A stretch of 64,000 nt of DNA. Origin: Eledone cirrhosa. Taxonomy: Eukaryota. The notes below the pieces were generated by a model that saw nothing but the letters and a program-made list of their open reading frames with translations, did no database searches and was not told the DNA's origin. The DNA lies in NCBI GenBank assembly GCA_964016885.1, contig OZ024743.1, positions 215,140,001 to 215,204,000 on the forward strand. The letters are read 5' to 3'. This document shows positions 2,341-63,438 of the stretch, in pieces. The first letter of the stretch is position 1; the number at the start of each line of letters is the position of its first letter. A program made the position numbers and the translations under genes.

Positions 2341-2344
2341 AATT

Positions 2345-2690
2345 CACATAATAATAATAATGATGATTTCATTTATTAGCCACAAGGGCCGACATGTAGG
2401 GGACAATAAAAAGACAGGGACAGTGGGGGATACAATAAGGTCGAGTACAGTGCACAACGCAAGACTAATTTAACAATGAAAATATAAAAATATGAAATAA
2501 AATATGCATAAATATAATAATAATAATAATAATGATTTCATTTATTAGCCACAAGGGCCGACATGTAGGGGACAATACAAAGACAGGGACAGTGGGGGTT
2601 TACAATAAGGTCGAGTTAAAGTGCACAATGGCAAGACTAATTTAACAATGAAAATATAAAATATAAAATAAACTATGCAAAATATAACAA
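2345..2690 (-). repeat. Tandem duplication (~170 bp) of the Tx1-like 3' UTR and tail
   Basis: The string ataat..gatttcatttattagccacaagggccgacatgtaggggacaata..aagactaatttaacaatgaaaatataaaa occurs at ~2350-2515 and ~2520-2690. Confidence 0.9.
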
Positions 2691-3668
2691 AATAAATTCC
2701 CCGATAGGGGGTGGACGACCCTGGGTGATTCGGGTATCCCACCAATCCTGAACCACCCTGCGCTTCTAGGGCACCCAGGAGAGCACCCCTCTCCTCAAGT
2801 TATCTAGCCTATAGGCGCATGGTCAGAGTAGGCCCATTCACACGAGCCATTCTCGCCATATTCACCCACCTTTTAGCAAATGTACTGGGGGGCAGCACTT
2901 CTCTCTCCACCCTCACCCTCCTTTCCAGGTGAAACTTGAAGAAGTTGATGAGGGATTGGCCGAAGAGAAAAATGTCTGTCTTTAGTCCTTTCAACCTGGT
3001 CCACCATGTAATCTCTTTTGCAACTGCCACCAGACAGAGGAAAATGTCCTGCTCTGCCTGACCTAAGGAAGGTGGCGGCTCGATCTTCACTATGGACTCG
3101 GCCGATAGCCGGATTTGTTCCACATGCGACAGTAGCTGTTTGACATAACTCCACAAGTCAGTAATGCACAGACATTGGACAAGTGCGTGCAGAACGGTTT
3201 CGTCGTTCTGTGCGCATCTTGGGCAGGTCCGTCTGACAGCACTTCCGTGCCTGTAGAGTTTATCCCGAACCGGCAGTGCCCCCCGGTAGCACTGCCAAGC
3301 GAGGGATTTCTGGAAATTGTCCATCGTCCCCGGCTCAAAAGTCCTCCGGTACAGACTGGTCAGTTCGACTTCGTCGAGGCCCAAAGCTTCTCCGAGTGCG
3401 TCATCGCACTTGCCCACCACTAATCCTCTATAGAACTCGAGAGTGGAAGTTCCACTGATCGCATTGCGCGCTTGGTAGAGGGCAGTGAGTGCCTGGCAAC
3501 ATTCCAGGTGCCAGTCACCCAGTCTCGGTCTCTTCTTGACCCAGGACTGCAGCTCAGTCAAAGAAATGAGCTGCGGAAAGGCCCGTCTGATAAACGGCGA
3601 CCACACCTGTTCACCATTGAGGCAGAATATCTGGAGATGTCGCAGCCTCAACGCACGTCTGCGCATTA

Positions 3669-5405
3669 TTAGCCACGTAAGCCCATCCCTCCGCGTAGAG
3701 GGTGCTGGCAGCAGATGGACCGCCTCAGCAACAGAACTTGTCCCCTCCACAAGAATTTGAAGAGGAGCCGTTCCAACTTGACGAGGCGCGGAGGGGGGCA
3801 AGGCACGACGGTTAGGCGGTAATAGATGACGGACGCGATGTACGCATTCGCCACCTCCGCGCGACCTTTCAGTGATAGCTTCCTCCCAGCCCATTTTTGG
3901 GTGAGACTGGCTACTCTGCTCGTTACCTCGTCCCAATTCTTTTCCACCTGGAGGTATGGTCCGAACCAAACCCCGAGCAACTTTACTGGTCCGTCCGTCC
4001 AGCGCCCCACCACGCTGTTGGACGGCATGGGCTTGCCTCTGCAGGTTCCGAGCTGCAAGCCCACCGACTTTTCCGGGTTAAGTTTGGCTCCTGTCAACCT
4101 TTCATATTCCTTCAATAAGGTGCCGACCACCTTGATTTCTGAGGTGTTCGACACCATCACGGTGATGTCGTTCGCATAAGCCGACACCGCCTTTCCACGT
4201 CCCGGTTCGAGCGGGATGCCCGGCAACAGCTCCAGCTTCCGCAGTAAAGGCTCGAGAGTCAATACGTACAGAAGGGAAGAGAGAAGGCACCCTTGACGGA
4301 CCGATCGGGAGAGCCGAAATAGTTCCGAGTGGTGGCCATTAACCTTGACCACCGAGCGTGTGCCTCTGTGCATTGCAACGATCCAGCTTCCAAAGCCAAC
4401 TGCTTTGAGGACAAACTCCAGATACCGATGGTCGACCCTATCGAATGCTTTCGATTGATCTAAATTGATCAGTGCCCCACCGACGCCAGGTTTACACCCT
4501 ACCCTCTCTATGATATATCGCATGAGGTGGAGATTGTCGTGTATGGACCTGGCTGGGATTGCGCAAGTTTGCGCCTCCCCAACCAAATCCTCGACGATAA
4601 GCGCCAATCTTTTTGCTAACACCTTGGCCAAAATCTTAAACTCTGTGTTGAGCAGAGTTATGGGCACGAAGTTGTCTAATGTATCCCTCTTGTTCTCGTC
4701 TTTCCTTATCAGCGTCACCACTCCCCTGCTCACAGAACTGGGAATACTCCCATACTGCTGCCAGTTACAGTAGAGTGCTTCGCGGAGTTCGGAGAACAAG
4801 TCTGGCATATTTACGTAAAGCTCGTAGGGCAGGCCATCCAAGCCGGGTGACTTGCGCCTCATGCAGACGACAAGGGCGTCCTGAATTTCGGCTGAAGTAA
4901 TCGGCCTTTCGCAGCGCTCAGCGTCGACCGTCAAGATGCGCGGCAAGCCGTCAAGGTAGGGACTGAAATCCGCTACTCTCTCTGACTCGCCACTCTCCCC
5001 GAACCCGAGCAAAGTGCTGGCGAAAGGCCTCACACTCCGCTTGGAATCGCTTATCTCGTGTCCGTCTCGGTCCGCCAAAGACCGAATTGTGGTTTTATTA
5101 CCACGCTGCGCCTCCGCCACGCGGGGCCATCGAACAGCTTTAGTTCCCTCATTTCTCAGTGCACGCGCCTTAGCTCTGACAATGCAACCTTCGTGTTTGG
5201 CATTGAAGAAATGGTCTAATGCCATTCTCGCCGCTAGCACGTCAGTTGCGATGCCACTACAAATAGCCTCGTCTAACTTATCTACCAGCTCCCCCTCCTT
5301 TCTATTTTCCTCTAACGCTACTTCTTTGCTGAACTCTATCGAAGTTACTCTAATCTCTCTTTTGAGAGCCCCCCACCATCTGTTGTTGATGATCCCCCCT
5401 GTCAA
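3669..5405 (-). pseudogene. Reverse transcriptase portion of Tx1-like ORF2
   Basis: 578-aa ORF with L1/Tx1 RT motifs; catalytic YADD altered to YAND; flanking domains lie in other frames. Confidence 0.85.
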
Positions 5406-5421
5406 CTTTTGCTTAACTAAC

Positions 5422-6215
5422 TTATTGACATTGGTCCCTGTAAGCCTTACGTGCCGGAAATGACATGTTCAGCTTCCAGTAACCCTGTCCTAACCTACGC
5501 GTTTTATTTAGGTCGACCGTACAGATCACAAATTTGTGATCTGAATAGGCGACCGTTTTAAAAAGTGGACAGCCCACACTATTTCTATCTATTTTCCTAA
5601 TGAAGATTCTGTCTATATACGATCTAGATGACCCCATTCGGTTGGTCCATGTCCATACTGGCACATTGGGGAAAACTAGTCGATACCTGTCAGACAGTTG
5701 GAACTGGCTGAGTAGGTGCTTGAGGCTTTTGCACCCCCCGCTCCTATCGGCTACTCCCACGCAATCCCAGCGTGCGTCTAATATGCCATTCCAGTCCCCC
5801 GCTAATAGTAAAGGGCGAGACGTACCCAGAAGGTCTCCAGGCGCCTAAAGAAGTCAGGTCATCCGGCCCCTGTAGGGGCGTAGGCGGCCAGCAGTCTAAA
5901 GGCACCACCTTCGCTACTGCTCACATCCAAGACCACCAACTTACCGTCAGGGTCCCGGAAGATCGACCTTACCTCGAGATCCAGTCCTTTCCTAAACAGC
6001 ACTTCCACCCCACCCCCAATTCCCGGCCTGCTAACAGATGCGAAGATCTGATAGTCGTCGAAAATGGGGGCTAGTGCACCCTTGTCGGAAATTCTGGTCT
6101 CGCTTACGGCAATCACATCCATTTCCAGCGACCGGAGGTCGTTGAGCAGGCGACCCTGCTTCCAGGGTGACACTATGCCGCGATCATTTAAACTTCCTAC
6201 TCTTAATATGGCCAT
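5422..6215 (-). pseudogene. APE endonuclease portion of Tx1-like ORF2
   Basis: ORFs 5859-6215 and 5422-5760 carry the N-terminal APE motif and the SDH motif. Confidence 0.85.
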
Positions 6216-7194
6216 ATTGGTAAGCTAAGAGAGAGAGAGGGAAGGTTTACTTACCTCCCGGGTCTTGTGAAGGTCGGGTGGTTCGACCTCCATGGTTGGT
6301 GGGGTTTCTTTTGGGAACCCCTTTAAAAATCTTGATGTGGGTTTCACATTCGGGTTTCCCACGTCTTGAGGAAAGCTCTCTCGAATTTCTTTGAAGGAAT
6401 TGAGTGACATTCGGATCAGAAGCAAATCTTCTGGCACGCAAAATGTGCTCATTTCAAAAATCTCCCCCTCTGTTTGAATGTCCTCGCTTCGCGCTAAGAG
6501 GGCCATCAGTTTATCGTTGGCCCTTCTGACAAGCACGAAGTTTTTATAATAATAATAATTGAAGATGTGAAAGGTGCATATTTATTTTTTAAATATTTCC
6601 CCAATACAATTTTCCCTTTTTACATTTTGGTCGATCGTGGCTAAATTTTAGATTTTGAAAGGAAAATTGACAGTTGAAAGATCACTTCTCTCTCCCACCA
6701 CCACATTCACAGCCACTACCTCACGCATTCACGCCAGAAATCGCTAATCTATTTTCAGACTACTGTCATTGACAGCTACCTACCTCTCTTCTCAGTGTCT
6801 AATGCGTGGTTATACATATATATATATGTGTGTATATACATATATGTGTATAAATATTCACGTGTGAATGTATATTTATGTATGTGTATGCAGCCTACAT
6901 AAAGGAGAAAACAAAGGGGGAGAATAAAAGAATACTAGCAAACCATTTACACCTCAAACTCAAAATAGACAGAAAATAACATCGGAGAAGCAACTCCTAT
7001 CAGCTACAATGTCACCCTACCCACTACCACTCACCGCACCCCCAACCCCAGCATTAATCTCTCTGCCACCACCACCAACACCACTCACACCACAAGAACA
7101 GTTGAGAAAATTCTCGTACACCTCTTACAGCTGCAGCCATAACAATATCACCTCAATCAACACCAACAATGACCATAATTATACTGTTTTAATA

Positions 7195-7322
7195 ATAATA
7201 ATTGTTTCTACTTTTGGCAAAAGGCCAGCAATTAATCATTGTATTACTGGTACTTTATTTTATCGACCCCCGTAAGGATGAAAGGCAAAGTTAACCTCGG
7301 CGGGATTTGAACTCAGACCCTA
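7195..7322 (-). mobile_element. Partial octopus-type SINE
   Basis: tttatcgacccccgtaaggatgaaaggcaaagttaacctcggcgggatttgaactcag, shared with several copies in the window. Confidence 0.85.
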
Positions 7323-7339
7323 AAATAGTAATAATGATC

Positions 7340-10300
7340 TGAGTGCCAGCCAGCAACTGCACTAGCCAAAGAGCCGGGCAACGTTCAATGTACGTCCAAT
7401 ACCATGCGTAACGCAAGCATGTACTGCGAGATGAACAAATAAAAATTAATACACAATACCAAATCGCTTTTCCTATGGTTAATCAAGAAGCGCATCTCCC
7501 AGGAAGGTGCCAACCTGAGATCGAAAAGTCCTCCTCTGGCACAAACTCTTCTCCAATTATGGACCTGGATGGTCACTTGATGGGGGATTGCCTCAACTCG
7601 AGCCATCCAGATCCACCACTCAAACCACCTCACAAAGAAAAACCTAAAAGGATTAAATGGACCCGAGAAGAGTATAAAGAAGTAATATATGCATATTACT
7701 ATGCATTAGGTTAGCCATCACAAGACAGACACACTTTAAACTCCTACAAAATCTGGAAAACTCGGAATCAAGCTAGCAGGCGTGATATGGATGGAAATAA
7801 GTTGGCAAATGTAAGGAGGTATATCTTCAGAAATAATAGACTCACAGGCACTAAACTTAATGCGATCAAACAGGCTGTGGAAAATGACATAAATATAAAT
7901 GATGAAATAACTGAAGAATCTCCTGGAGATAGTAACCATTCACAAGTATTTACTGAAAGACCTCCATCTGACCAAATCACAAATAGGTTTGTAGAAATGA
8001 GAAGCCCTATTGAACCCGCAGAAAATAGCCAGGAGAGGGACTTAGAAACAGTAATTGAAAACCAAACATCTGCTGAAGAACAGAGGGAGACTATGAAAGA
8101 ATTAAAGCAAAACATACTGAATGAGCTTGCAGTAGTAAGACATTCTAGTATACCACTTCAAACTCCCAAATACAATCCAAAATAGAATACAAATAATGAT
8201 TGGTAATTCTGTGACAAAGGAAATCATAGAAGAGCTAGAACGTGATCTTACTGAGTTAAATAAAATCATGTATGCATCTGCTAGAGTAATTGAAACAAGT
8301 TGTTTACCACCAAAAGAAAATAAAAAGTCGAACATTCGAGGTAAACCAATTTGGAGGAGTAGAATCGAAAAGGAGATTGACGTAATGCGAGGAGAAATAT
8401 CTTTATTGAGTGAGTTAACCGCAGGAAATGATATAAGATCGAAGAAGGTAAGAAAGCTAAATAGAAAATATGGACAGTCTTCTAGAGAAGCACTTGTTTC
8501 AACAAAAGAATCTCTGAAACAAAAAGTCCAAGTAAAAGCCCAACGAATTCGTAGATTCGAGAAGCGAAACAACTTCTACAGGAAAATAAGTTGTTCTCAT
8601 CCAATGCCAAGTCCTTTTATATATGAAGTTGAAAACTTCTGGAGTAAGATTTGGAGTGTTGAGAAGACATATGATGCTAATGTAAATTGGATTAGTCGCC
8701 TGGAAAAATCCTACAAAAATTTAGAAGAACAGTCGTGGGAAGACATTTCTATAGCGGACTTAAGGACAGCACTCAATAAATCTCATAAATGGAAATCTCC
8801 AGGTAGAGACAGGTGCCACATTTCTCGCTTTCCTCACTGCCGTGCATTCACAATATATTGGTCAAGCTGTTTAATGGAATTATAAACGATCCAAAAAATA
8901 CACCTGATTGGATAGCAAGTGGCATTACCTACCTACTACCAAAGAATAACGAAACCAAAGATAAAAAAAACTATCGGCCCATAACCTGCTTGTGCACCAT
9001 TTATAAACTATTACCCTCTATTCTCATGGAAAAGACATACGTGTTTTTGGAGGAGAACAATATTTTCCCCTTTGAACAAAAAGTGTGCTGACGAGGTTCA
9101 TATGGTTGCAAAGATCAACCTTTGATTAATCGTATGATCCTTGAGAACTGTCATAATAAACATAGAAATATCAGTTCTGCATGGATCGATTACAAAATAG
9201 CCTCGGACAGCATACCACACTCATGGATTCTGAAATCACTGGCCTTCTTCAAAATCTCACCTGTGATCTTAAACTTTCTGAAACACAATATGTCATTATG
9301 GAACACACATCTCCAATTGTCTCATTCAACTGGGGTACAGTGCTCTAGGAATATAAACATCAACTGTGGTATATTCCAGGGTGACTCACTTTAACCCTTG
9401 CTTTTCTGCATAGCTTTAATACCCCTTACATCCGAACTTAATAGAACAGGGTACGGTTATAGAATTGACAACAAAAAAATAAGCCACCTATTTTATATGG
9501 ATGATTTGAAGCTATATTGCAAAGATAATGACGAACTGGAAGGCCTTTTGCGGAGAGTAAAAACGTTTAGCGATAACATCAGGATGGAGTTTGGACTTGA
9601 CAAGTGTGCAAAAGCCACTTTCAAGAAGGGGAAGCTTGTCAACTCAGACTCAGTTGAATTGGATGCTGAAACAATCATAAATGAACTTGAGAAGGAACAA
9701 ACCTATAAATACTTAGATATTAATGAGGGCTCTGGCATACAGCATGCAAGTATGGAAGAGAGGACAAGGAATACATGTTACAGGAGAGTACGTGCAGTTC
9801 CGAGATCAGAACTAAACGCTCGTAATAAGGTGCTAGCCATAAATTCCTTGGCAGTACCAGTTGTCACTTGTAGCTTTGGTGTAAGGAACTGGAATATGAG
9901 TGAAATAAAAAGATTCGACACCAAAGTCTGTACGCTACTGACCTGTAAAAGGATGCACCACCCAAAAGCAGATGTGGATCGTCTTTACCTTACTAGAACT
10001 CAAGGAGGTCATCGCCTGATCCAATTTGAACTTGCTTACAAGACCACCATCATTGGACTGGCCAAATACCTTGAAACAACGAACGAATGTATGCTGAAAC
10101 TTGTTGAAAAGCATGAGAGAAATAAGAAGGTTAATTCTATCTTGAAGGAGAGCAACACATATGCTACTGCTCTCATGCTTTATACCCAGGCTGGACAGAC
10201 TAAAGAAACTCTTGCAACTGATGCTTCTAGGCACATACAATCACTGGCAAAACAAAAGGGTAAGGACAATTAGCACCAAATTGGGAGCAGAAATCTCTGC

Positions 10301-10948
10301 ATGGCAAATATGTTGCCCGTAGCAAACAAGCTGATGTTGACTAAAAGCACACCCATGAGTGGCTACGTAGTTCAGGGCTAAAGGCCTCATCTTATCTGCC
10401 CAATATCAAAGCTCATTGACTTGTAATTCCCAGGGCAATGTGATGATAAACGGAATAAACCCAAAGTGCCGATTCTGCAATGCTGAATCACTTAGTCGCT
10501 GGATGTAAAGCTTTAGCACCAGAAGAATACAAATATAGACATGTCAGAGTTGGCCAATTTCTACACTGCGTAATATGTCGGTATTACAAAATCAATGCTG
10601 AAGACAAGTGGTACAATCATCACCCTGAGGCTGTAACTGAAGGAGAAAAAGTAACAATTCTCTGGGACTTTCCTGTACATACTCACAGGACCATAAAAGC
10701 AAATAGACCTGACATCATTGTAAACGATCAACATAACACGGTCTGTTTATTGATAGGTATGAGCATTCCATGTGATCACAATATCGCGCAATAGAAGTTG
10801 ACAAGCTACGAAAATATAAAGATTTGCTTATTGAAATTGAGAAAATGTGGCACCTCAAGGCCGTTACAATACCAGTGATTGTGGGAGATCTGGGAATAAT
10901 CAAGAAAGGAACATAACAATATTTGCGAATGATTCCTGGTTTACCCTC
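7340..10948 (+). mobile_element. Decayed, near full-length R4/Dong-like RLE retrotransposon
   Basis: N-terminal RIKWTREEYKEV; RT pieces WKSPGRD, NYRPITCL, WIDYKIASDSIPH, GIFQGDSL, HLFYMDDLKL; CRFC..HLVAGC..YRH zinc knuckle; RPDIIV restriction-like endonuclease. Preceded by a TAA-rich site. Confidence 0.9.
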
Positions 10949-16089: not shown

Positions 16090-17122
16090 TATCAACTAGA
16101 AATAGATTGACATATATATATATATATATATATAAAATAAACAATCACAGGGAAAAAATTGTAAATAATGTAAGCACACATAGCTAGGTAGGTACCCAAT
16201 TAAAGTTTAACTAGAACTTCAAATATAGATACCTTTAAAATGATTAATTTCCTTTGTATATATTTCTTTAAGTAAAAAATATATTTCACCAATTAATCAG
16301 TAAATCACATTAGTCAAAGGAGAAGAAATAACTATCTGCGTTTACAAAGCAAATGCAAATCTGTGAATGACTCGTACATCGTGTTGCATTTTTTAAAAAT
16401 ACACACATCGCCCAGCGTCATCCCAGTGGCGTGAATAGGATTATTGACAGCTAGAAATAGCAGCCACGTCCATTCAATTGAGTTAGCTCTACAATTAAGG
16501 GGCCGTATATATATCCAAAATTAAATTAAGGGTTGTCTGTCTGAGAGACATGCGCCATATCCACTGTAGAATAAGCTCAAAGATTCCAATGTTCCGAGCA
16601 TTTCATAGAGCTAACTCAGTTGAATGGACTCGGCTGCTATTTCTAGCTGTCGATAATCCTATTCCCGCCACTGGGGTGACGCTGTGCGATGTGTGTATTT
16701 TTTTAAAAATGCAACATGTGGTTCGAGTCCTTCACAGATTTGCATTTGCTTTGTAAACGCAGATAGTTATTTTCTTCTCCTTTGGTTACCATCAAGGATT
16801 TGACTACTGTGATTTGCAGATTAATTAGTGAAATATATTTTTTACTTAAAGAAATATATACAAAGGAGATTAATCATTTTAAAAGTATCTATATTTGAAG
16901 TTGTAGTTAAACTTTAATTGTTTATCTGCCTAGCTATGTGTGCTTACATTCTTTACAAATTATTCCCTGTGATTGTTCTCTATGTTTATTTTATATATAT
17001 ATATGTCAATTTATTTCTAGTTGATATAAAATGCTCGGATCTATTCATTAGAATCTTTGAGCTTATTCTACTGTGGATATGGTTCATGTCTCTCAGACAT
17101 GACAACCCTTAATTTAATTTTG
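16090..17122. repeat. Interleaved fold-back element A'-B-A-B' bounded by (TA)n
   Basis: 16090-16491 is the reverse complement of 16606-17027; 16517-16603 is the reverse complement of 17029-17122. Confidence 0.9.
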
Positions 17123-20316: not shown

Positions 20317-20893
20317 TGTAAGAAGAAATTATAGACACAAATATATACCTATTATTTCTCAATGTCCCGACTGTACAGTTTCGCAGGTCACTATGCAAAA
20401 ATCTGATGTCATATAGATGTAATATTGCTGAGAGTTAAGCCAGCTTTTCAAGGGAGCAACTCAGGGAAAGAGCGCTAACTAGACACGTCCGTAGCATGAG
20501 AGAAAATCTCAAGAAGGCAGAGGGAGGCCCTATCACGTGATACACCGGTAGAGTAACCACGGAATTATAGAGACTGCTTTCAATCAAACACTATATACAC
20601 TTTCAGTCAATCTTACCACCCCACTGTAGCCTCTGTATCATATTTAGCCCCCAATCTTGACCGGTATATCACGTGATAGTGTCTCCCTCCGCCTTTTTGA
20701 GATTTTCTCGCATGCTACGGACGTGTCTAGTTAGCGCTCTTTCCCTGAGGTGCTCCTTTGAAAAGCTGACTTATCTCACACCAATATTACATCTCTATGA
20801 TATAAGATTTTTGCATAGTGACCAGCGGAACTGTACAGTCGGGACATTGAGGAAATAATAGGTATATATTTGTGTCTATTATTTCTTCTTACA
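20317..20893. repeat. Fold-back element with ~235-bp arms and a degenerate HHR in each arm
   Basis: 20317-20549 inverts 20660-20893. Right arm reads ttcc CTGAGGT gct..agc GGAA ctgtacag TC ggga; the left arm keeps GAAA. Confidence 0.85.
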
Positions 20894-27701: not shown

Positions 27702-27820
27702 GATATATATATATATAGAGAGAGAGATATCCCAGTAGGTACTAGGTATACACGGAAATATATATGGTGTCTATAATAGTGGTTGTTCTATGGTACTAAT
27801 TTGAGATACCAGAACTGTAA

Positions 27821-28402
27821 ATATGAGCGGAACAAGTAAATATTAAACAATCTTTTAAATAAATTAAAATACGATTTAAATATTTACCTCTTCTAGTGCC
27901 ATGACCGACGGTTTCGATTATCAAAAGATTGGAAATTCACAGAATTTCCAATGGAAAGATATAGCTCTTCAGATAGCTTTTCCAAATCTACTAGACATAA
28001 GTCCGTATACATGTAGATATATCACCCTCTGCCCAGTGAATGAATAAAGCCGTTAAAATGACGCACACACTTATTGGACCGTTAGAAAAAGCGGGTATTA
28101 TAGACTCACTGATATTACATGCTGAAATAACAGCGAGTCTATAATTCCCGCTTTTTCTAACGGTCCAATAAGAGTGTGGGTCATTTTAACGTCTTGATTC
28201 ATTCACTGGGCAGAGGGTGATATATCTACATCTGTCTAGTAGATTTAGAAAAGCTATCTGAAGAGCTATATCTTTCCATTGGAAATTCACTGAATTTCCA
28301 ATCTTTTGATAAGCGAAACCATCGGTCATGGCACTAGAAGAGGTAAATATTTAAATCGTATTTTAATTTATTTAAAATATTGTTTAATGTTTACTTGTTC
28401 CG

Positions 28403-28409
<7 letters not shown>
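27821..28409. mobile_element. Fold-back element (~280-bp arms, 27-nt spacer) carrying two hammerheads
   Basis: 27821-28107 inverts 28135-28409; the right end abuts (TA)n. Confidence 0.9.
28253..28332 (+). ncRNA. Type I hammerhead ribozyme (mirror copy at 27898-27977, minus strand)
   Basis: gctat CTGAAGA gct..attggaaattc act gaatttccaat..agc GAAA ccatcgg TC atggc; stems I-III pair. Confidence 0.85.
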
Positions 28410-28451
<42 letters not shown>

Positions 28452-31685: not shown

Positions 31686-31767
31686 ACTCCAACTAATTAG
31701 TTTCTGCAATGGGATAAAGACAGTTACGTAATGAACTGTTGAGAATTTCATTGCGTCATCAGGGAGT
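31686..31767 (-). ncRNA. Type I hammerhead ribozyme downstream of a minus-strand PLE fragment
   Basis: actcc CTGATGA c gcaatg..cattgc a GAAA ctaattag TT ggagt. Confidence 0.85.
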
Positions 31768-31978: not shown

Positions 31979-32629
31979 CTAACACCCCCCAAAACAAATT
32001 AGTAGTGGTTTTGGCAGGTTTGCTCGACAAATCAGTGATTTGGAGATAAATATAGATAATTTAATATATCTACTAACATAAGCGCACAGATGTACGCTAA
32101 TGCCAGCAAATACACAGGTTATGTCATAGTACCTAGGTGGTTCAATGCATGAGGATGCAGAACAATAATATAAAAGACGTAAGAACAAAGCTTTTTTCCA
32201 AGAGATGTTATATTTAATAGTTTTGTCTTTCAAGGACCATATAAGTTCTGAGAGAGCCGTGTTGGTTCTTTTAAGTTGGTATTTAAAAGACGAATGATGT
32301 TTATAAAGACGAGCTTTAATGGAGGTGGAAGTGGAGCCAAAATAGGTGAAGGAATTGGTGTCAGTTATAACTTTACATTCGTAGATTAAGTTTTTATCAA
32401 GACAATGGTTGTTGAGAGGACATTCATTTTTAGCAGGGCAATTGTAATTGCGATTAGAGAGATTATTAACGAGTGACCTAGTGTTATCTATAGAAGGAAA
32501 TGGATTGGAGAAGTTATTTGCGATAGGAATAATAGTTTCTTGATTTAGAATGGGATTAAGAACATTTAGCGAAGTTGTGTTTGACGTTGTATTTGGGTCT
32601 AATTTCTGCAAACCCAAATACAACGTCAA
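31979..32629 (-). mobile_element. PLE GIY-YIG endonuclease fragment
   Basis: NCPAKNECPLNNHCLDKNLIYECKV..TYFGSTSTSIKARLYKHHSSF..TALSELIWSLKD..ISWK. Confidence 0.85.
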
Positions 32630-33235
32630 ACAGAATCTATTTTAAAATAATATATATATTTATTTGGTTCCTTTACCGGTTTTGCAGTTCTTCTGCTTTT
32701 CAATAGTAGAGTTGAGATGGAGGGTCTGTGGGTTTTCTCACATCTGGTTGGTCTCTGAATGTTACTTGTTTTATATGGAAAAAAGTGGCTCGAAAAGCCA
32801 GGTTTTTCGAGAAGTAATTTGATTGGTTGGTCAATAATTATAATAAATTTCGCGCCAGGTCGCGTTACAAAGTTCTTCAAACAAGGGAGGGGGGAGGTCA
32901 CAGGTTGTTTTTTCATATATGAGTGTTTGAATTTCTTTTTACTTAAAAAAAAGGGGGCTCACGAAGGCTTTTTTTTAACAAACGTAATTTGATTGGTTAT
33001 AAATGAAATTATGACTGTCACATGAACAAGTTTTCATTAAATTTTCGCGACCTTATGTGGAAATCTATTCTGTAGCCTTTTTAGAGAATGTTATGACAAG
33101 TAAAAGATAATGGTCAAGAGAAATTGGATGGGAGAATTGTTCTGGTCCAGTGAATATGGTTAGTTCGCTGGGGTGTCAGAATTCAGATTTTCTATTGAAT
33201 AAAGAATGTAAAGATATGTATGTTTATTCGTGTGC

Positions 33236-34843: not shown

Positions 34844-34847
<4 letters not shown>

Positions 34848-37808
34848 GAAAGAAGGTTTACATGGTTTGCTATACAAAAAAGTTTTTAATCACATAATCA
34901 CATAGCTTACCTTTGTTTCACTGAACTGGTATGTCTAGAGATCGCTATCCGCTTAATTTTGCGTTACTCGATCGCCAATACAGAATTATAACCAGTCAGA
35001 TCTCCGGAGCATGCGAGAATGAAGAAAATACACAGGCAAGAAAATAAAATAAAATACGGAGTAGTTATGGCATTCAATTAGAACAATAACAACAATTACA
35101 ACAATGCTATCAATAAACTATTTAAGGAGACCCTGATATTACTTAGGTGGGGGGTATATAATGTATCTAATGTTACGGCGTGAAAACCAGCTGTCATAAG
35201 GCAAAAAGTATCGTAGTGTGTATCAATTTTAAATTATAAAGATAAGCTAGTTTTTACAGTCTTTCTCTTCATCTTCAACAGTATACATGAGTGGGACCAC
35301 TGTCGAAGCTCAATAGTTGCAGAGTTAATATAGAGGTTAACGAATTAATATACGCATATATCTACATACACACACACACACACACATACATATATATAAA
35401 TACATATACACATATATATACATGCATGTGTACATAGACACATACATACACATCAATATACACTCGTACAAAAATATACATACATGCAAAGAGAAAAGCG
35501 TGCTAATTGTAATTATGGCAAAAAGAAGGTAAAGTAACATTGTAGTAGTGAAATGAGAAAAACTAGGATCTAGGATTTATAGGGACGACACGTTACTTAT
35601 AACTAGGAACCTAAACAACCAGAGCATGGAAAGACTAAGGAAAAATATTAGAATATTCTTCAAAAAACTAGGCCTAAGTATTACCTACGAACTAAACCAT
35701 AAGAAGGTAAATTTTCTAGATGTAACTCTAAATCTAAATACTGGATTAATAGAACCTTTCCACAAAAATAATGAAAATCTTGCCTACATTAGTTACAACT
35801 CGAATCACCCCAAATCCATAATTAAATTCATAGCACGTAGTATATCCCTCCGAATATCCCGCTTATCCTCAAACCTAGAAATCTTTAACGAGCATGCTGA
35901 CTATTATAATGCAGCATTAAGTAGGGCCGGTCATAAAGATAAACTACAGTATATAGTGAATAAGGACAACATAAACAATCCTAGTAATTTCTACTCCAAC
36001 CGCTCACATAATAATAGGAATAGCTTGACTAGACATAGGGTTAGACATGTAACACCTAGAGTAAACGGCCAAAAACACTAATAACGTAAACCCTAGAAAC
36101 AATAGAAGAAACAGACAAAGAAAATACCTATGGTTCAACCCAATATTCAACTCCTCTATAAAAACTAGACTGCCCTCTACATTATTTAAACTAATAGATA
36201 AACACTTCCCTATCTCGCATAGATATCACAAAATACTCAATAGATCTACTATAAAACTCTCTTTCTCAACAGCAGCTAACATAGAATCACACATACGCAA
36301 GATCAACCACAGAAATATCTCAAGTAAATCAATTGCACCTATACATAAGCACAAACTCATCACTACATCACAACCACAAGCGCATACAAATGCGCAGCAG
36401 CAAAACCCCATTGGGCATATATCACAACCCACTTATAACAGGGTACTAAATAGGAATGGAAAAGCTGCACAAAATAGCGCCTCAAACTGCAACTGTCACC
36501 TCCCAGATAGGTGCCCATTGGCGAACAGTTGTCTCGATTCGAGCCTGGTGTACATGTGCACTGTCATCTCGGGTAACTCCACCTGGAATTACATAGGATC
36601 CACCGCGGGTTCTTTTAAGAAAAGATGGTATGTGCACAGGCACTCAATGAAAAAACGTGCACTTATGGGTTCCACCACCCTCGCCAGAAAAATATGGGAA
36701 TTGAAGGACAGCAACACTAACTACACTATCAACTGGTCGAAGTTGTCGGCTGCTAAAACCTATAGTACAGGGATGTCCTATTGCGGGCTGTGTGATCTTG
36801 AGCTATTGTATATCCTTAGAAATGTTAAAAGGCTACTTAATAATAAGTTAGAAAGATCTATCTTCTGCAGACATAGAATAGCCACTAAATTCATAAGATT
36901 CAAACCTCCGTGAATCGAACCAACATAACATAGCTTTAAATTAGGATACCTACTACCCACAGAAATATATTCATTAAGTATACTATTTCCTTCACAAGTC
37001 TATACCACACAATTGTCTGTAAGTACCTCATCTACCAATAATCTTACTCCTTCTCAGCTGCTGCAATCATTTGATCCTAGATCCTAGTTTTTCTCATTTC
37101 ACTACTACAATGTTACTTTACCTTCTTTTTGCCATAATTACAATTAGCACGCTTTTCTCTTTGCATGTATGTATATTTTTGTACGAGTGTATATTGATGT
37201 GTATGTATGTGTCTATGTACACATGCATGTATATATATGTGTATATGTATTTATATGTATGTGTGTGTGTGTGTGTATGTAGATATAAGCGTATATTAAT
37301 TCGTTAAACTCTGTATTAACTCTGCAACTATTAAGCTTCGACAGTGGTCCCACTCATGTATACTGTTGAAGATGAAGAGAAAGACTGTAAAAACTAGCTT
37401 ATCTTTATAATTTAAAATTGATACACACTACGATACTTTTTGCCTTATGACAGCTGGTTTTCACGCCGTAACATTAGATACATTATATACCCCCCCCCCC
37501 ACCTAAGTAATGTCAGTGTCTCCTTAAATAGTTTATTGATAGCATTGTTGTAATTGTTGTTATTGTTCTAATTGAATGCCATAACTACTCCATATAGTAG
37601 CCGTATTTTCTTTTCTTTTCTTGCCTGTGTATTTTCTTCATTCTCGCATGCTCCGAAGATCTGACTGGTTATAATTCTGTATTGGCGATCGAGTAACGCA
37701 AAATTAAGCGGATAGCGATCTCTAGACATACCAGTTCAGTGAAACAAATGTAAGCTATGTGATTAAAAACTTTTTTGTATAGCAAACCATGTAAACCTTC
37801 TTTCCTGA
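34844..37808 (+). mobile_element. 5'-truncated PLE flanked by ~730-bp inverted pLTRs
   Basis: 34844-35575 inverts 37075-37808. Between them: IYRDD, VNFLDVTLNL, SNHPKSI, LWFNP, CNCHLPDRCPL and WNYIGST..KKRWYVH..CGLC. Confidence 0.9.
37647..37759 (+). ncRNA. Variant hammerhead in the pLTR (mirror at 34901-35013, minus strand)
   Basis: catgct CCGAAGA t ctgactggt..accagttcag t GAAA caaatg TA agctatg. Confidence 0.65.
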
Positions 37809-43623: not shown

Positions 43624-44283
43624 TTTCGTTCGATCTCACGCTCTTGAACTTATGTTCTGTTACCGCTGTGATCTTGGATTCTCTCTCTAGTTGCTGCCCA
43701 TTCTTCGGTTTGTTGTTTTTTTCGCTGTTTTCTCTTTTCCCCCTTTCCCTTCTATTTTCCTTTCTCTCCCTCCTCCGTTTTCCCAATAACTTACCCGGTT
43801 ATTGAACGCTCTGGGGTAGATATATTGTCGTTAAAGCGTTGAAATATCCGAGACCCCCAGGAGACAACTGACGAGACTCCAACCCAACCGGTCCTTGCTT
43901 TCTTCTTACTCTCATTCCATTTTTAAGCCTATATATATATCAAGATATATATATATATATATAAATATATATATATATAGGCTTAAAAGTAGAATAAGAG
44001 TAAGAAAGCAAGGACAGGTCGGGGGGGGGGTCTCGTCAGTTGTCTCCTGGGGGTCTCGGATAGTTCAACGCTTTAAAGACAATATATCTACCCCCAGGGC
44101 GTTCAATAACCGGGTAAGTTATTGGGAAAACTGAGGATGGAGAGAAGGAAAATAGCAGGGAAAAGGGGAAAAGAGAAAACAGCGAAAAAAACAACAAACC
44201 GAAGAATGGGCAGCAACTAGAGAGAGAATCCAAGTTCACAGCGGTAACAGAACATAAGTTCATGAGCCTGAGATCGAACGAAA
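43624..44283. repeat. Fold-back with ~310-bp arms and a (TA)n spacer
   Basis: 43624-43935 inverts ~43975-44283. Confidence 0.9.
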
Positions 44284-48301: not shown

Positions 48302-48816
48302 TATATATATATATATATATATAGTGGTGTGTATGTGGTTGTGAGTATGTAAATATATTTTATTCTTTCCATTCTACAAAAACACTCTGGCCACCTGTGG
48401 CTTGTATGTTAACTTGACCACTCACCTCAGTCTGTGCTATGATTCGGTCTTGCTTATCTTCTATTACCAACCCACCTAAAAAAATGTCCCTACTATATAT
48501 CAGTTGAATTACTATTCTTGGGGTTTTTATTTATTTCTTTTTTTAATATAATTTTTTTTTTCTTTATTTATTTTTTTTTTCTTTATTTATTTATTCATTT
48601 ATCTATTTATTCATTTATTTATTTATTTATTTACTTATTTATTTATTTCAAAAATGCACTCTGGCTAATTGACCACTCCCCAAAGAAAAAACGGTCTGTG
48701 ACATGTTGTGACCCTGTGTATCTAAATACCATCCTCCCCCCCCCCCTACCCCCACCCACCATCCCTCCCTTACCACTACCTAAATGTATAAATACCAGAA
48801 CTTAATATGACACCCA

Positions 48817-48865
48817 GCTTCCTGAAGATTTCTTCTGAATGAAACAGTACTAGTCCTGTAGAAGC
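48817..48865 (+). ncRNA. Compact type I hammerhead ribozyme
   Basis: gcttc CTGAAGA t ttc ttct gaa t GAAA cag tactagtc ctg TA gaagc. Confidence 0.8.
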
Positions 48866-48892
48866 GCCTTCTATACAATAAAATATATATAT

Positions 48893-49323
48893 ATAAAATA
48901 TAAAAAAAATAATGAATAAAACAATGAAACAGTTCCTTATATTAAACAAAAAAAGTTCATTATTTAACGATCGTTTCTAGGATATATATGTGTTAGAATT
49001 GGCATGCATATTCAACAGATCTATGTACAAAATTATACAAAATTATACAAACTATCAAAATTAAATATACATACCAAACACATATATATGCCGTCTTCAG
49101 AAATAATGATTATTTCTGAAGACGGCATATATATATGTTTGGTATGTATATTTAATTTTGATAGTTTGTATAATTTTGTATAATTTTGTACATAGATCTG
49201 TTGAATATGCATGCCAATTCTAACACATATATATCCTAGAAACGATCGTTAAATAATGAACTTTTTTTGTTTAATATAAGGAACTGTTTCATTGTTTTAT
49301 TCATTATTTTTTTAATATTTTAT
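48893..49323. mobile_element. Near-perfect 430-bp palindrome centred at 49108 and made of two hammerheads
   Basis: Centre reads ..gccgtcttcagaaataat-g-attatttctgaagacggc..; the arms differ at very few positions. Confidence 0.95.
49109..49257 (+). ncRNA. Hammerhead with ~115-nt stem II insert (mirror at 48959-49107, minus strand)
   Basis: attattt CTGAAGA cgg catatata..tatatatcc ta GAAA cgatcg TT aaataat. Confidence 0.8.
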
Positions 49324-49498
49324 CTTGACTCTGTATTCCGTTTATCTTTCACCGAAAGTGATTTTTCATTGCATCTCTTATTTCCATGATATCCGGATTA
49401 CATTGAGTTCTTCATACGGATTGGACACTACCGTAAACTCTTGGTAGATTTATCTACATATATATATATATATATATATATGCACATATATATATATA

Positions 49499-49593
<95 letters not shown>

Positions 49594-55329: not shown

Positions 55330-56185
55330 TCCAGGACTGATGTCACACAAGATTTATTTCAAACACAAACTTTAAACCAAGAGTTTTCTCCTTCAAAGTA
55401 ATCCCCCTGCAGTCTAATGCACGTTTCCAATATTTTCTGCCACGCTTGCCTGCACCTGCACTCCTGGAAGGATTCTCTCGGGATCCTCCGCAGTTTCGTC
55501 GTCACAGCCATTTTGATGTCGTCCACGTCTTCAAAACGGGTCCCCTCCGGGTCGCACTCGAAGATCCATGACTCATCACCGGTGATGACTGTCCCTAGCA
55601 TGTCTGGTTTGGTTTCAAGACGCTCGAGGATGTCCTGGCACACTTGCATGCGTCGACCCTTCTGGTCATCGTTCAGTAGTTTTGGCACCAACTTCGCGCA
55701 GACTTTCCGCATGTACAATGCTTCAGTGAGAATCTCCCAGACGCTGTCCCGATTTATGCCCAGCTCATTTGCTATCAGTCGAACAGTCGGCCGACGATCG
55801 CTACGCACCATCTGCATGACGCGTTCAACGTTGACCTCAGTCCTGGTTGTTGAGGGCCTTCTGCTCCTGGGATCATCTTGCACCATTCACAAACGCGTGA
55901 GCGTGACATCGTCTCATCTCCATACACTTGGTGCAGCAATCCCAGTGTTTCTGACGGAGTTACCCCAACCGTACCAGAAACTTCAAGTTTGTTCGTTGCT
56001 CTGTGCCCATTGCTTGACAACCTGAAACAGAGGATTTGTATATGAAATTATGAAGAAAAAAGTTTGATCGCAGCAGAGAGCTAAGATTACAGTTACATAC
56101 TCCAGAGGGATTACTTTGAAAGAGGAAACTCTTAGTATGAAATTTGGGTTTGAAATAAAGATTTATTTCAAACCCAAATTTCACG
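55330..56185 (-). mobile_element. Internally deleted mariner-family transposon
   Basis: EQRTNLKFLVRLG, VYGDETMSRSRVCEW (HTH), MRKVCAKLVPKLL and VITGDESWIFECDPE joined directly to GTRFEDVDDIK..CIRLQGDYFEG; most of the catalytic domain is missing. Confidence 0.9.
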
Positions 56186-56297: not shown

Positions 56298-56454
56298 AAT
56301 GGGGTTAGAAAACTAGAAGGTAATATCCGTAGTGGTAAAGCACTCAGCCCATGGGACGAGTTTGGCAGAAGTAGAAACACAACAGTTAGTTCACCATACC
56401 GAGAACAATTGTTTCAACTTCACAAAGGTGAAACAAATGTTCTCGGTATGGTGA
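56298..56454. repeat. Truncated relative of the 58190-58466 element with a short fold-back
   Basis: caccataccgagaacaattgtttca..tgaaacaaatgttctcggtatggtg; the upstream ~90 nt match 58190-58280. Confidence 0.8.
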
Positions 56455-56460
56455 CCTTAC

Positions 56461-57124
56461 TCGGAAGTTGTTTTTCGTTAATTCCTGAGCCGAAGTACGA
56501 TTCTCGCTAATTTATATTTGTATTAATCTCCAGAGTCTAGCTATTGACCAGTTAATTTTCTTGATTTTTTTAGTTGATTCTATTGACTGATGAACAGCTT
56601 ATGTTAACTTATAACCAATCTGTTTAGAGCTTTATTCGATTTGTGATGTTTTGCATTCTTGCAATAATATACACAAGTGAATTCATTCGCCTAAAATAAG
56701 GGTTGCCTCACTTGCCGAGCTCCACGTTGGGTCGGTAACGGTCATTCCTTAAATTAGCACTCGAACTAAAACCTGTTGAAAAAGTGGCTTTCTTGTTCAA
56801 TCATCTTTCCAGAAGCCTAACATTATTTATGTAAGCGGACGGTACTTGATTTAGGAGTCGCAGAAACCCAAATGCTGGATCTTACCAACCCAGGGGTCCG
56901 GGTAAATTGTTAATCACATACATTTTTATTTGTTTGACCCGAATTACTGGGTCGTTTTTTTTTGGTTGTGCGAATGATTGTTTAACCATCGTCACAGTGT
57001 GTTTGCCCTTTAACGTATGTTGTAGCTCTGGTTCATCTGAATCATTGAGCGCTTGCCACACATCTCGGAAGTTGTTTTTCGTTAACTCCTGAGCCGAAGT
57101 ACGATTCTCGCTAATTTATATTTA
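56461..57124. repeat. ~660-bp segment bounded by ~60-bp direct repeats
   Basis: tcggaagttgtttttcgttaa(t/c)tcctgagccgaagtacgattctcgctaatttatattt at 56461 and 57065. Confidence 0.85.
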
Positions 57125-57133
57125 TATATATAT

Positions 57134-58114
57134 ATATAAAGAAAAAAAGATGAAATCGAAAATGCAACTGGAGTCTTATTTAAACAAATATGTATATATT
57201 TATTTGGTTCCTTTACCGGTTTCGTAGTACTTCTGCTTTTCAAAAGTAGAGTTGAGATGGAGGGTCTGTGGTTTTTCTCACATCTGGTTGGTCTTTGAAT
57301 GTTACTTGTTTTATATGGAAAAAAGTGTCTCGAAACACCAGGTTTTTAGAGAAGTAATTCGATTGGTTGGTCAATAAATACAATAAATTTCGCGCAGCTC
57401 GCGTTACAAAGTTCTTCAGAGAAGAAGGGGGGTGCTCAGGTTGTTTTTTTCATATATGAGTGTTTGAATTTCTTTTTACTTAAAAAAAGGGGCTCACGAA
57501 GGCTTTTTTTAAATAAATGTAATTTGATTGGTTATGAATGAAATTATAGCAGTCACGTGAACATTTCATTAAATTTTCGCGCCCGTATTTGGGAATTTAT
57601 TTGTAGCCTTTTAGAGAATGTTGCGTTTGTCATAAATTCTCTAAAAGGCTACACAATAAATTACCAAATACGGGCGCGAAATTTAATGAACTTGTTCCCG
57701 TGACAGCCATAATTTCATTTACATCCAATTAAATTACATTTATAAAAAAATCCTTCGTTAGCCCCTTTTTTTAAGTAAAAAGAAATTCAAACACTCATAT
57801 ATAAAAAAACAATCTGAGCACCCCCCCCCCCTTGTTTAAAGAGCTTTGTAACGCGAACTGGCGCGAAATTTATTATACTTATTGACCAACCAATCAAATT
57901 ACTTCTCTAAAAACCTGGCGTTTCGAGCCACTTTTTTCCATATGAAACAAGTAACATTCAAACACCAACCAGATGTGAGAAAAACCACAGACCCTCCATA
58001 TCAACTCTACTTTTGAAAAGAAGAAGAACTGCGAAACCGGTAAAGGTACTAAACAATTTTTTTTTAAAAATAAGACTCCAGTTGCATTTTCGATTTCATC
58101 TTTTTTTCTTTATA
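57134..58114. mobile_element. Fold-back (~485-bp arms) with variant hammerheads (57210-57248 minus; 58008-58048 plus)
   Basis: 57134-57619 inverts 57636-58114; consensus tactt TTGAAAA gcag aagaa ctgc GAAA ccgg TA aagg. Confidence 0.85.
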
Positions 58115-58251: not shown

Positions 58252-58466
58252 TAGAAGTGGTTACACAACAGTTAGTTCACCATACCGAGAACAATTGTTT
58301 CACATTAGCGGATCCTTAGCTCGTAATTGACATGCTTATACGGAACAGCCTGTTCACATTGTGAACAGCCTGTTCCGTATAACCATGTCCAATACGAGCT
58401 GAGGATCTGCTATGTTGAAACAATTGTTCTAGGTATGGTGAACTAACTTTTGTGTAAGGACTTCTA
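58252..58466. mobile_element. 215-bp palindrome centred at 58359 with a hammerhead pair (58283-58325 minus; 58393-58435 plus)
   Basis: Consensus tacgag CTGAGGA ..11 nt.. GAAA caattg TT ctcggta; ends at (TA)n. Confidence 0.85.
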
Positions 58467-58593: not shown

Positions 58594-59098
58594 TATATAA
58601 AACAAAAATAAGAATTGCATTTTACTGTTTCTACAGATTATAGATATTTGTATAGGATAAAATATCTCTTAATGTCGTGCGTGCACGCCTGGCTAGATTA
58701 GCGTACCCAGGTCAGTCAGCCTTCATATACCTTCCTCCTTGTATTTCGGTCGGTTTAGCACCCTGCTGCTGACATGAAGCTTATAAACTACGTACATAAC
58801 ATTCTAGATGACTGACGTCTCCCTGTGACAGACAAGAAAAACAACAAACTTGTTAATATGTTTTGATTTGATTTTTTCGCTTAGCTATTTTTGCTTTCAA
58901 TACATGCCCATATATGCACTCTACCCTATAATAAGTTCAGCTAGATTCCCGCCGTTATTATACTGGTCGCTTAGTTCGGATCTACCTGTCGAAACGGCCG
59001 GAGCTCAGCCATCGGAGTCCTACATATATATATATATATATTATATATGAATTTATTTTCAAGATTTCTTATCTGGAAAAGTGTGTTGAAACAGATAT

Positions 59099-59504
59099 TG
59101 TTGTAGTTACGGAGGGTCATGCTACCAATAAAAATACACGCATCTGTTGCTTTTCACGTCAATGTAAAAATTTGCGGTCGATTGGTTGGTTCGATAACTG
59201 GATAGTTGTATATATTGCCAAAGTTCTTTCGACACACATCAGGGAGTAGGTATTTATTTTCTGTCTTGACCTTGTTCTGTCCTACACTATCTTCTGCAGG
59301 CCAGAACAACGGAGAGGCACACACAATAAAAATATAGTCATTGAGGAGGTCACAGAATGTGTGTCGAAATAGATTTGACAATATATAAATAATATTCTGG
59401 TTATCGAACCAACAACCAATCGGAAACGTACAATGAATTGAAGTGAACAGCAACATATGCGTTTGTTTTTATTGGCACCATGACCCTCCCAAAGTATGAC
59501 AACA
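59099..59504. repeat. Diverged fold-back with ~140-bp arms
   Basis: ggagggtcatg.taccaataaaaa..gattggttggttcgataac..tttcgacacacat inverts 59358-59504. Confidence 0.75.
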
Positions 59505-59520
59505 TATATATATATATATG

Positions 59521-60524: not shown

Positions 60525-62971
60525 TATCACAGAAAAAAGAGAATCAGTGTTGCGACGAAAGGAATTACAATTGTTTCTCAGGCGACCAGCTCGAGGCACG
60601 ATCGATGTGGTGATCAAACCTGACTCTGAAATCACGTGGTCCTCGGATACGTTGCGATTCTACGAAGCAGATTTTCCTATTGTCCTTTAACATCGAATTC
60701 TTTCGTTTGTTGATTTAGATCCTGCTGTCGTCAATCCATGAGTGGTCAAGAATTGTACAGATCACCGGTATTTCTAGGCACTCATGGTTGCCCACTGTTT
60801 GGTTCTTCTCGTTCTCCACCTGTCAATCAAAATTTCTACATATATCAGAATTACTACTGTGGTGGGAGAGTGGCTGTAATCTTAAACGGCTGGCATCACG
60901 TCGACGTATTCGTTGTCGCTAGGCTCCCTGGTCCACAGCGGTCAGGTACACACACGCAATTATGCTGTATGTGGCAGTCATTGTAAATAATGTTGGCGGT
61001 TTTTTTTTTCATTAAAAAAAATCATAGGGATATTTAGCATAACATTTCTAGGACACAGCCTTAGAATACCCTCCACCAATACATATTTCAAAAAGGAAAA
61101 GAAAAAGAAAAAGAAAAAGAAAAAGAAAAAGAAAAAGAAAAAGAAAAAGAAAAAGAAAAAGAACGTTTTTAAATGAAAGCTTGCAACAGCATTTCAAACA
61201 GAAAGGCTATATCAGAGATGTTTTCAACAAATACACCCAATTCTACACTCACACACTGGACTCAGGGGAGCCCGCATAGGCAAGACGCCGCACATATATA
61301 GACAGATGAATTTTAATTTTAATTCTAATTTTAATTTCAAGTTTTAATTTTGTCGTTCCATGCCGCTGGTACACACGCACACAACGCCTGCCGCTAGCAC
61401 ATTACAATCATGCATACTCTCCACGTGCATTCCATATATACTGTTATGAAACTCATACCCTTTACATTCCATGTATACATCAAACCCATGCACATCCCAT
61501 ATATACTTTTTATGAAATAGATGTTACACATAACCACAATATATATAACTTGTTTGTGTACGCATGCACGGCCCACATCTATCCACAAGCCACGAGACCT
61601 GCATCATGCGCAGGCTCCCACCCAGTGCCTTAGATCACCAGCCCCCATATATATCATATAAACATTTTCACCACACACCCAAGTATTGTATGCAACTTTA
61701 TCCACACCCCGATAATGCCCGATTCCCCTCTGCATCCTTGTCATGTATGCATTCTCTTTTTCCAGAATTTTATTTTATTGTATTTTATCTTATTGTATTT
61801 TATTATTGTATATTATTTCATTATTATATTATTTTATGTTATGTATGTACAGACATTTTTATATATATGCCACCCACGGTATATGTGATTAGTGCAAGAA
61901 TATTGTGCTGCCTTAAAATTTAGGCATATTGTTCAGGTAACTTCGGATTCATACCGCCACGTGATCTGGTTGGGTCAAAGCCTCAAAAGCGTTGTCTCAT
62001 ACAATACTGTGTGTTCCATCTGCGCAGCTGCGCGTGTGAAGACGGATGAGGGGGTACTCATCAAGTATATGCCTCCGGTATGGTACCACGCGGGTGCATG
62101 AATGTATGTGTGTCCACACAGACATGCATGAGCATGGGTGTGCGCATGCCTGGGTCGATGTATCTGTCTCAGCATGTCTGCGTGGGGGTATGGATGAGTA
62201 TCTATGGATTTTCTTTTCATCTGTCTATATATGTGCGGCGTCTTGGCTATGCGCGCTCCCCTGAGTCCAGTGTGTGAGTGTAGAATTGGGTGTATTTGTT
62301 GAAAACACCTCTGATATTGCCTTTCTGTTTGAAAGGCTGTTGCAAGCTTTCATTTAAAAACGTTCTAATACAGGTTTTTTCTTTTTCATTTTGAAATATG
62401 TATTGGTGGAGGGTATTCTAAGGCTGTATCCTAGAAATGTTATGCTAAATATCCCTATGATTTGTTTAAAAGTAAAAGAATATTCCCGCCAAACATTATT
62501 TACAATGACTGCCGCATACATCATAGTTGCGGGTGTGTAACTGGCCGCTGTGGACAAGGGAGCCTAGGGACAATGAAGACGTCGAAGTGATGCCAACCGT
62601 TTAAGAACTCAGCGGTTCTCCCACCACAGTAGTAAATCTGATATATGTAGAAATTCTGATTGACAGGTGGAGAACGAGAAGAACCAAACAGTGGGCAACC
62701 ATGAGTGGCTAGAAATACCGGTGACGTGTAGAATTCTTGACCACTCATGGGATGGCAACAGGATCTAAATCAGCAAACGAAAGAATTCGATGTTAAAAGA
62801 CAATAGGAACATCTGCTTCGTAGATTCGAGACGTTTCCGAGGACCGCGCGATTTCAGAGTCAGGTTTGATCACGACATCGATCGTGCCTCGAGCTGGTGG
62901 ACCGAGAAACAATTGTAATATGTCCAATAAATTCCTTTCGTCGCGACACTAATTCTCTTTTTTCTGTGATA
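60525..62971. mobile_element. Large fold-back with ~770-bp arms and a ~900-bp spacer
   Basis: 60525-61310 inverts 62216-62971. ORFs 60738-60986 and 62521-62748 are mirror translations. Candidate HHRs at 60561-60652 (minus) and 62831-62923 (plus). Confidence 0.9.
61096..61163. repeat. (GAAAA/GAAAAA)n microsatellite expanded in the left arm only
   Basis: Directly visible; the right arm has only a short T run at the matching position. Confidence 0.9.
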
Positions 62972-63029: not shown

Positions 63030-63438
63030 TTAAAAAAAATTGAACGTTTTAGAAGCCTCAACAATGCAGATGGGTAAATCTCCGGGAAACAGAATCCGGT
63101 GGTGAAGAGAGAAATGTAAGAGGAAATGTAGAATGAGATGTATAGTTTGTAAGGCGACGTAGGAAATAGCGTAAAAATAAAAAATAAATACTTTCCCCCT
63201 CGGAAACCCCCCAGTTGATGGATGCGAAATCCGAAATATAGGGACAATTAAATCTCACCCAAGGTAACTCTATCTCTTGTTATTATTTTTATTCTTATGC
63301 TCTTTCCAACGTTCCTCTACACAGTATATATCTCATTCTACATTTCCTCTTACGTCTCTCTATTCACCACCGGATTCTCTTACCCGGAGATTTACCTATC
63401 TGCATTTTTGAGCCTTCCAAAACGACCAAATTTATAAA
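63030..63438. repeat. Diverged fold-back with ~160-bp arms
   Basis: aatgcagatgggtaaatctccggg..gaatccggtggtgaa..gtaagaggaaatgtagaatgagat inverts ~63330-63410. Confidence 0.85.

Follow-up and report, generated by a model that had tools for sequence, protein, structure and literature searches.

A young head-to-head Penelope-like insertion in Eledone cirrhosa with a family-level breakpoint hot spot at stem I of its hammerhead-like motif

In the accessible text of PMC8557442 and PMC3846280, an inverted 5′-truncated copy combined with a one-sided tail is the standard outcome of insertion for endonuclease-bearing (EN+) Penelope-like elements (PLEs). The hammerheads of PLEs also occur as opposite-strand pairs 100–700 bp apart, as already noted in the passages of Cervera and de la Pena (2014; PMC4209133) that concern them. 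According to the part of PMC11167929 that deals with PAc Poseidon, this PLE protein can nick both target strands in vitro and extend each of them, two internal starts bound the tail, and hammerhead cleavage is dispensable in vitro. A further point of comparison is provided by the animal non-LTR retrozymes, described in the accessible text of PMC7229834 and bioRxiv 10.64898/2026.07.22.740005 as non-coding, AT-rich units of a few hundred bases with a type I hammerhead, arranged head to tail in tandem.

We analysed a window of 64,000 nucleotides from Eledone cirrhosa (64 kb; all positions refer to it), an AT-rich, microsatellite-rich stretch of animal-type DNA full of retroelement fragments. It contains a real, young stub of the known PLE kind, namely a head-to-head insertion with a one-sided tail. 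The whole insertion spans 48893–49457 (565 bp) and is thus larger than the 48893–49323 delimited in a preliminary description, which had presented it as a 430-bp perfect palindrome. A palindrome it is, but a near-perfect one: the arms, of 215 nt each and 99% identical, differ at two sites (pairs 49081/49135 and 48902/49314). The left, inverted arm (48893–49107, minus strand) is a 5′-truncated copy that ends at the inner 3′ terminus of the family, whereas the direct arm (49109–49323, plus strand) continues into a 134-nt tail (49324–49457, plus strand) that ends in a short inverted repeat at the outer terminus. The 1-nt spacer reported between the arms is G49108, whose minus-strand complement is the C within stem I. 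The insertion is flanked on both ends by (AT)n, with an (AT)5 remnant of the target on the left (48883–48892) and a longer stretch on the right (49458–49593); within such repeats a target-site duplication is indistinguishable. On its left side, the palindrome sits in the (AT)n that lies behind a host element (48817–48882, plus strand), which carries the hammerhead-like motif of another family and an AATAAA and is followed by (AT)n up to 48892. This host motif (48817–48892, plus strand) shows a U–U at the base of its stem II.

The locus has in common with the EN+ PLE insertions of PMC8557442 and PMC3846280, as far as their accessible text goes, a head-to-head inverted copy (5′-truncated and located at the 5′ end), a tail at one end only, a junction palindrome and a hammerhead in the terminal repeat. 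Its position between (AT)n repeats recalls the insertion into (TA)n noted for Neptune and Naiad in the same portions of these two papers. On the other hand, the insert contains no ORF, its tail of 134 nt compares with published tails of 30–40 nt, and the recurrent breakpoint at stem I detailed below is not described in those portions. The likeness to PAc Poseidon lies in the two 3′ termini that bound a tail, the AT-rich target and the extension of both strands; the 5′ stop and the joining step, which we address here, are absent from the accessible text of PMC11167929. As for the animal retrozymes, the non-coding and AT-rich nature, the type I hammerhead and the size of a few hundred bases are shared, but we found no head-to-tail tandem of hammerhead units in the 64-kb window and no such joint among those listed, and the locus is not a tandem retrozyme.

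Part of the stretch is present in 19 of the 23 public sequencing runs listed, from 15 studies. No RNA run is among those listed as containing it, which is neutral as to expression. Four of these runs (contigs of X1, X4 and X6 and ddRAD reads of X21) were aligned on 49080–49455. They reveal a high-copy family, with 1821 contigs in X1, 4778 ddRAD reads in X21, 27 contigs in X4 and 23 contigs in X6, in which only 725 of the 4778 X21 reads are at least 99% alike to the window copy. The family has two 3′ ends, an inner one at 49323 and an outer one at about 49457. The inner one, which mirrors the end of the left arm, gives way to (AT)n in 432 X21 reads, seven X1 contigs and two X4 contigs. At the outer one, seven X1 contigs share the terminal letters and then enter a microsatellite. 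The tail is family-wide and not unique flanking sequence, with a depth of about 850–1500 in X21. Against this background, the window base differs from 397 of 407 reads at 49135 (right arm only) and from 899 of 903 reads at 49380 (in the tail). Counting the second arm mismatch, about three changes in 565 bp look like private ones, which fits the young age initially proposed, although assembly errors may also produce apparent private changes. Sequence upstream of stem I is found in 283 RAD reads and two X4 contigs, which means that not every copy stops at stem I; it also confirms the 9-nt 5′ strand of this stem. No ORF linked to the hammerhead unit was found in the 30 nt of upstream sequence examined. 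Pattern scans for the motif in metagenomes, prokaryote genomes and viral contigs returned nothing genuine, the lone match (L001) being a chance one of 26 nt within a bacterial ORF.

Read outward from the axis, each arm shows a type I hammerhead-like motif. The minus-strand motif (48957–49109) has its core at 49100–49094, a stem I of 9 bp and a predicted cut after 48966; its plus-strand counterpart (49109–49257) has its core at 49116–49122, GAAA at 49239–49242 and a predicted cut after 49250. The statement that each arm starts with stem I applies in full to the minus strand (9 bp), whereas stem I is cut to 7 bp on the plus strand. Likewise, the axis does not fall exactly at the 5′ edge of stem I, where it had been placed, but about 2 nt inside it, because the minus-strand stem I takes in the spacer and reaches one base into the opposite arm. 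The stem II region, estimated at about 115 nt, is a long hairpin of 116 nt between the core CTGAAGA and GAAA (49123–49238, plus strand), in which a C following the core and an A preceding GAAA are left unpaired. Stem III is palindromic, as had been seen (ACGATCGT), and this self-complementary stem gives a duplex of −10.0 kcal/mol. The letters at the axis do equal those that follow the predicted cleavage site; this match is nevertheless no independent evidence, as it is the complementarity of stem I seen from the other strand.

The hammerhead assignment comes from our own descriptor scan and folding, since Rfam provided no hammerhead match: there were zero matches at the gathering score in the 64-kb window, and the 25 weak matches over 48600–49500 correspond to generic AT-rich hairpins, without any hammerhead family. 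The core elements CUGANGA, GAAA and UH are present together with stems I and III, and the proposed PLE-type reading of the motif is supported. With the PLE hammerheads in the relevant passages of PMC4209133 it shares type I topology, an extra base after the core (here a C after CUGAAGA) and a palindromic stem III suited to dimers. It departs from them by a stem II region of 116 nt instead of a 7–8 bp helix, by a stem I of 9 bp instead of 4–5, and by the absence of the G10.1–C11.1 pair that closes stem II beside GAAA, where U instead faces G or A and an additional A precedes GAAA. This core variant with a long stem II may already be described in the work of Lunse et al. on PLE hammerhead variants. 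In the minus-strand RNA monomer, the fold constrained to the hammerhead reaches −44.3 kcal/mol against −45.5 kcal/mol for the minimum free energy, i.e. a cost of 1.2 kcal/mol, and the 9-bp stem I has a pairing probability of 0.5–0.9. The 163-nt minus-strand stretch that includes the stem II hairpin has a z score of −7.06, and none of 200 shuffled sequences was equally stable. The fold is kept among family variants in which H17 is U or A (870 of 2624 reads) or in which an A-to-G change in stem I gives a U–G pair (747 of 2566 reads). A second stem-I-like 9-mer, at 49301, is not followed by a core. It should also be noted that the 3′ strand of stem II (49196–49222) differs from a second abundant subfamily (518 reads) by A-to-G changes for which pairing is kept as G–U; edited RNA may have been the source of such differences.

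Palindromic centres whose middle differs from that of the window were found in runs of three organism labels. A centre lacking 3 nt is seen in one contig each of X1, X4 and X6, and a centre lacking 1 nt in five X1 contigs, one X4 contig and three reads; both are perfect palindromes. Two of the three 3-nt-short contigs end about 15 nt past the axis, much as a 31-mer assembly graph would give at a perfect palindrome. Substitutions at the centre, from G to A (11 contigs and eight reads) or from G to T (eight contigs and four reads), are probably one type read from both strands. They are less secure than the deletion types, as AT-rich upstream variants could mimic them.

Asymmetric inverted joints point to the same place: in eight of nine, one partner stops 3–8 nt before the hammerhead core. 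In all eight listed contig joints (seven in X1 and one in X6), the antisense piece stops at the sense equivalent of 49108–49113, while the sense partners start at 49153, 49228, 49332, 49342, 49385, 49402, 49416 and 49420; the lone joint off stem I is a RAD joint (49188/49325) with a single start. The nominal P for eight of nine at stem I is 3e-11, assuming uniform ends and equal detection elsewhere, the latter being unproven given that no opposite-strand joint is found among the contig-set matches listed. The tail fully contains six of the eight sense partners (nominal P 0.016), as expected for cDNA primed at the outer start. Four contig joints share 1–4 nt between their partners, and the four others carry a filler of 3–34 nt, partly copied from the element. 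With a reference of 28 nt to the left of the axis, the sides of these joints measure 23–28 letters, below the 31-letter bridging standard. The count is blind to ends upstream of stem I. We excluded from it four X21 junctions (49080–49139, 49080–49223, 49080–49225 and 49138–49223), read as stem II length variants or gaps, as well as a 49103–49086 contig; symmetric fold-backs away from stem I could be among 170 unlisted loose ends. Stem I is thus a breakpoint hot spot at the level of the family, within which the axis is not placed at random. The literature searched, outside which one relevant paper lay, yielded no report of breakpoints at a hammerhead stem I.

The non-random axis that mapping of other copies was meant to reveal was seen within this family. 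The window holds three other head-to-head palindromes of hammerhead families (27818–28412, 58252–58466 and 56384–56461), whose axes precede the core by 143 nt and by 40 nt, or lie beyond it, and the stem I hot spot is therefore not a general rule. The one with its axis 143 nt before the core, entered in our feature list as 27718–28412, is older (arms 90% identical) and of the same architecture: (AT)n flanks it on both sides, and its left side carries about 100 additional nt. The stubs at 58252–58466 and 56384–56461 are both head to head and belong to one further hammerhead-like family, with differing axes. Another hammerhead-like motif, at 31762 (minus strand), is of a different family and has the same core variant (extra C, extra A before GAAA), its stem II region spanning 51 nt and its stem III being palindromic. 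Upstream of it lies a GIY-YIG-like ORF that has a cysteine linker (31979–32641, minus strand), for which the best named cluster has GIY-YIG on 11% of its members, a lead only, and Pfam gave 0/6. PLE-like reverse transcriptase/endonuclease fragments (35557–36913, plus strand) are found within 34845–37807, flanked by long inverted repeats (94%). More inverted repeats (57149–58100, 20317–20893, 59095–59505, 63045–63424, 60525–62971 and 16140–16977), with no intact hammerhead core near the axis, are likely to be truncated retroelement insertions. At 43625–44282, the two members of an inverted pair flank a central (AT)n, and each carries CTGACGA reading toward the centre (tail to tail). Finally, 152–10794 and 55359–55886 hold putative decayed LINE-like ORFs and a putative mariner-like transposase fragment, named by their motifs.

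How could such a locus arise? We lean towards the view that the 3′ end (pLTR and tail) of an endonuclease-bearing, microsatellite-targeting PLE inserted recently as a 565-bp stub, in which two cDNAs were joined head to head. The enzyme of the element would nick both strands of the (AT)n target, one cDNA being primed at the inner start and the other at the outer start. Each would end only a few bases from the 5′ strand of stem I, the likeliest reason being that the template RNA begins there, and the two free ends would then be joined with a loss of 0–3 nt, microhomology or filler. The predicted hammerhead cleavage would not be needed for this route. The involvement of two cDNAs is suggested by the PLE protein that extends both strands and starts at two sites (PMC11167929, accessible text), and end-joining by the shared letters or fillers at the joints.

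To account for the stop we favour an RNA 5′ end first; the stop may also result from processing, from trimming to the fold or from RNA structure. At the edge, the letters TCATT (A being 49109) resemble an initiator. Cleavage at a poly(A) site may also be considered as the source of this end: AATAAA is found 6–7 nt before stem I in both upstream variants, a spacing closer than is usual for a poly(A) site. The edge lacks an AG, which rules out a 3′ splice site such as that of Drosophila virilis. More tentatively, and with less than even confidence, we suggest that the family might be copied mainly from a short RNA starting at the 5′ strand of stem I and bearing the unusual core variant with its long stem II, that the palindromes would be rebuilt at each insertion by joining run-off cDNAs, and that the ribozyme fold would serve to mark the 5′ boundary of the template and not for cleavage.

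The main rival to two joined cDNAs, possible but in our view unlikely, is snap-back self-priming, in which a cDNA or an antisense RNA would fold back at a short inverted repeat that combines the 5′ strand of stem I with bases immediately upstream, then copy itself to the inner terminus. Junction palindromes are interpreted as self-priming, with antisense RNA proposed, in the accessible text of PMC3846280 (Arkhipova et al., 2013). Self-copying would also suit arms that are so alike in a family with so few reads this close to the window copy. In the cDNA of both upstream variants, a TATTT could form 5 bp with AAATA; with one of these variants, the resulting centre would lack a single T relative to that of the window. 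The X6 filler opens with a 6-nt snap-back. However, none of the centres listed is one that the two upstream variants predict, centres with loops of 0–1 nt cannot prime directly, and simple self-copying leaves the eight asymmetric joints unexplained, six of which have a partner located only in the tail.

The preliminary description had favoured a related idea, namely that the self-complementarity of stem I drives priming or a template switch through pairing of its 5′ and 3′ strands in the cDNA. This we find rather improbable. Within the cDNA, the end copied from stem I is complementary to a single site, that of the predicted cleavage, and the partner that priming by stem I predicts (49251–49260) is seen in none of the eight listed joints. 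Priming there would moreover leave an anti-hammerhead loop and not a symmetric palindrome, and the centres vary between copies, unlike the product of a single templated event. In a weaker form, pairing would only dislodge the enzyme and set the stop. The propensity of stem I to form in the RNA monomer and a stop that falls where its 5′ strand has just been copied agree with this form, which is not distinguished from an RNA 5′ end; stem I may have a role as a stop or boundary.

A palindrome that moves as a small unit in its own right, of fold-back or retrozyme-like type, and is copied in full, is very improbable. The sole X6 contig over the core is indeed a palindromic-centre contig (depth 105.8), but at least three centre types exist, no head-to-tail tandem joint is among those listed, and folding predicts that a transcript of the full palindrome forms a 212-bp hairpin with a stem I probability of 0. 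Lastly, although independent reads do not bridge the exact locus (the aligned span being 49080–49455), an assembly or chimeric-read artefact, a risk raised at the outset, is hardly credible, as the mirror stops exactly at the native 3′ terminus of the family, the flanks differ, the arms differ at two sites and the same axis recurs in runs of three organism labels and four studies.

The architecture of the locus is ordinary for PLEs; what stands out is the family-level breakpoint hot spot, the long tail and the odd hammerhead. Its core variant with a long stem II escapes Rfam and is a ready assay target. Two questions are touched upon: how head-to-head inversions form, for which antisense self-priming is invoked in the accessible text of PMC3846280, and what role PLE hammerheads play, given that cleavage is dispensable in vitro in that of PMC11167929. 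As this young family is high-copy, with a sharp hot spot for breakpoints and centres that vary, both can be tested by counting its junctions in a single assembly. If true, the reading in which run-off cDNAs of a short RNA are joined would answer how the head-to-head inversions of PLEs arise from sense RNA.
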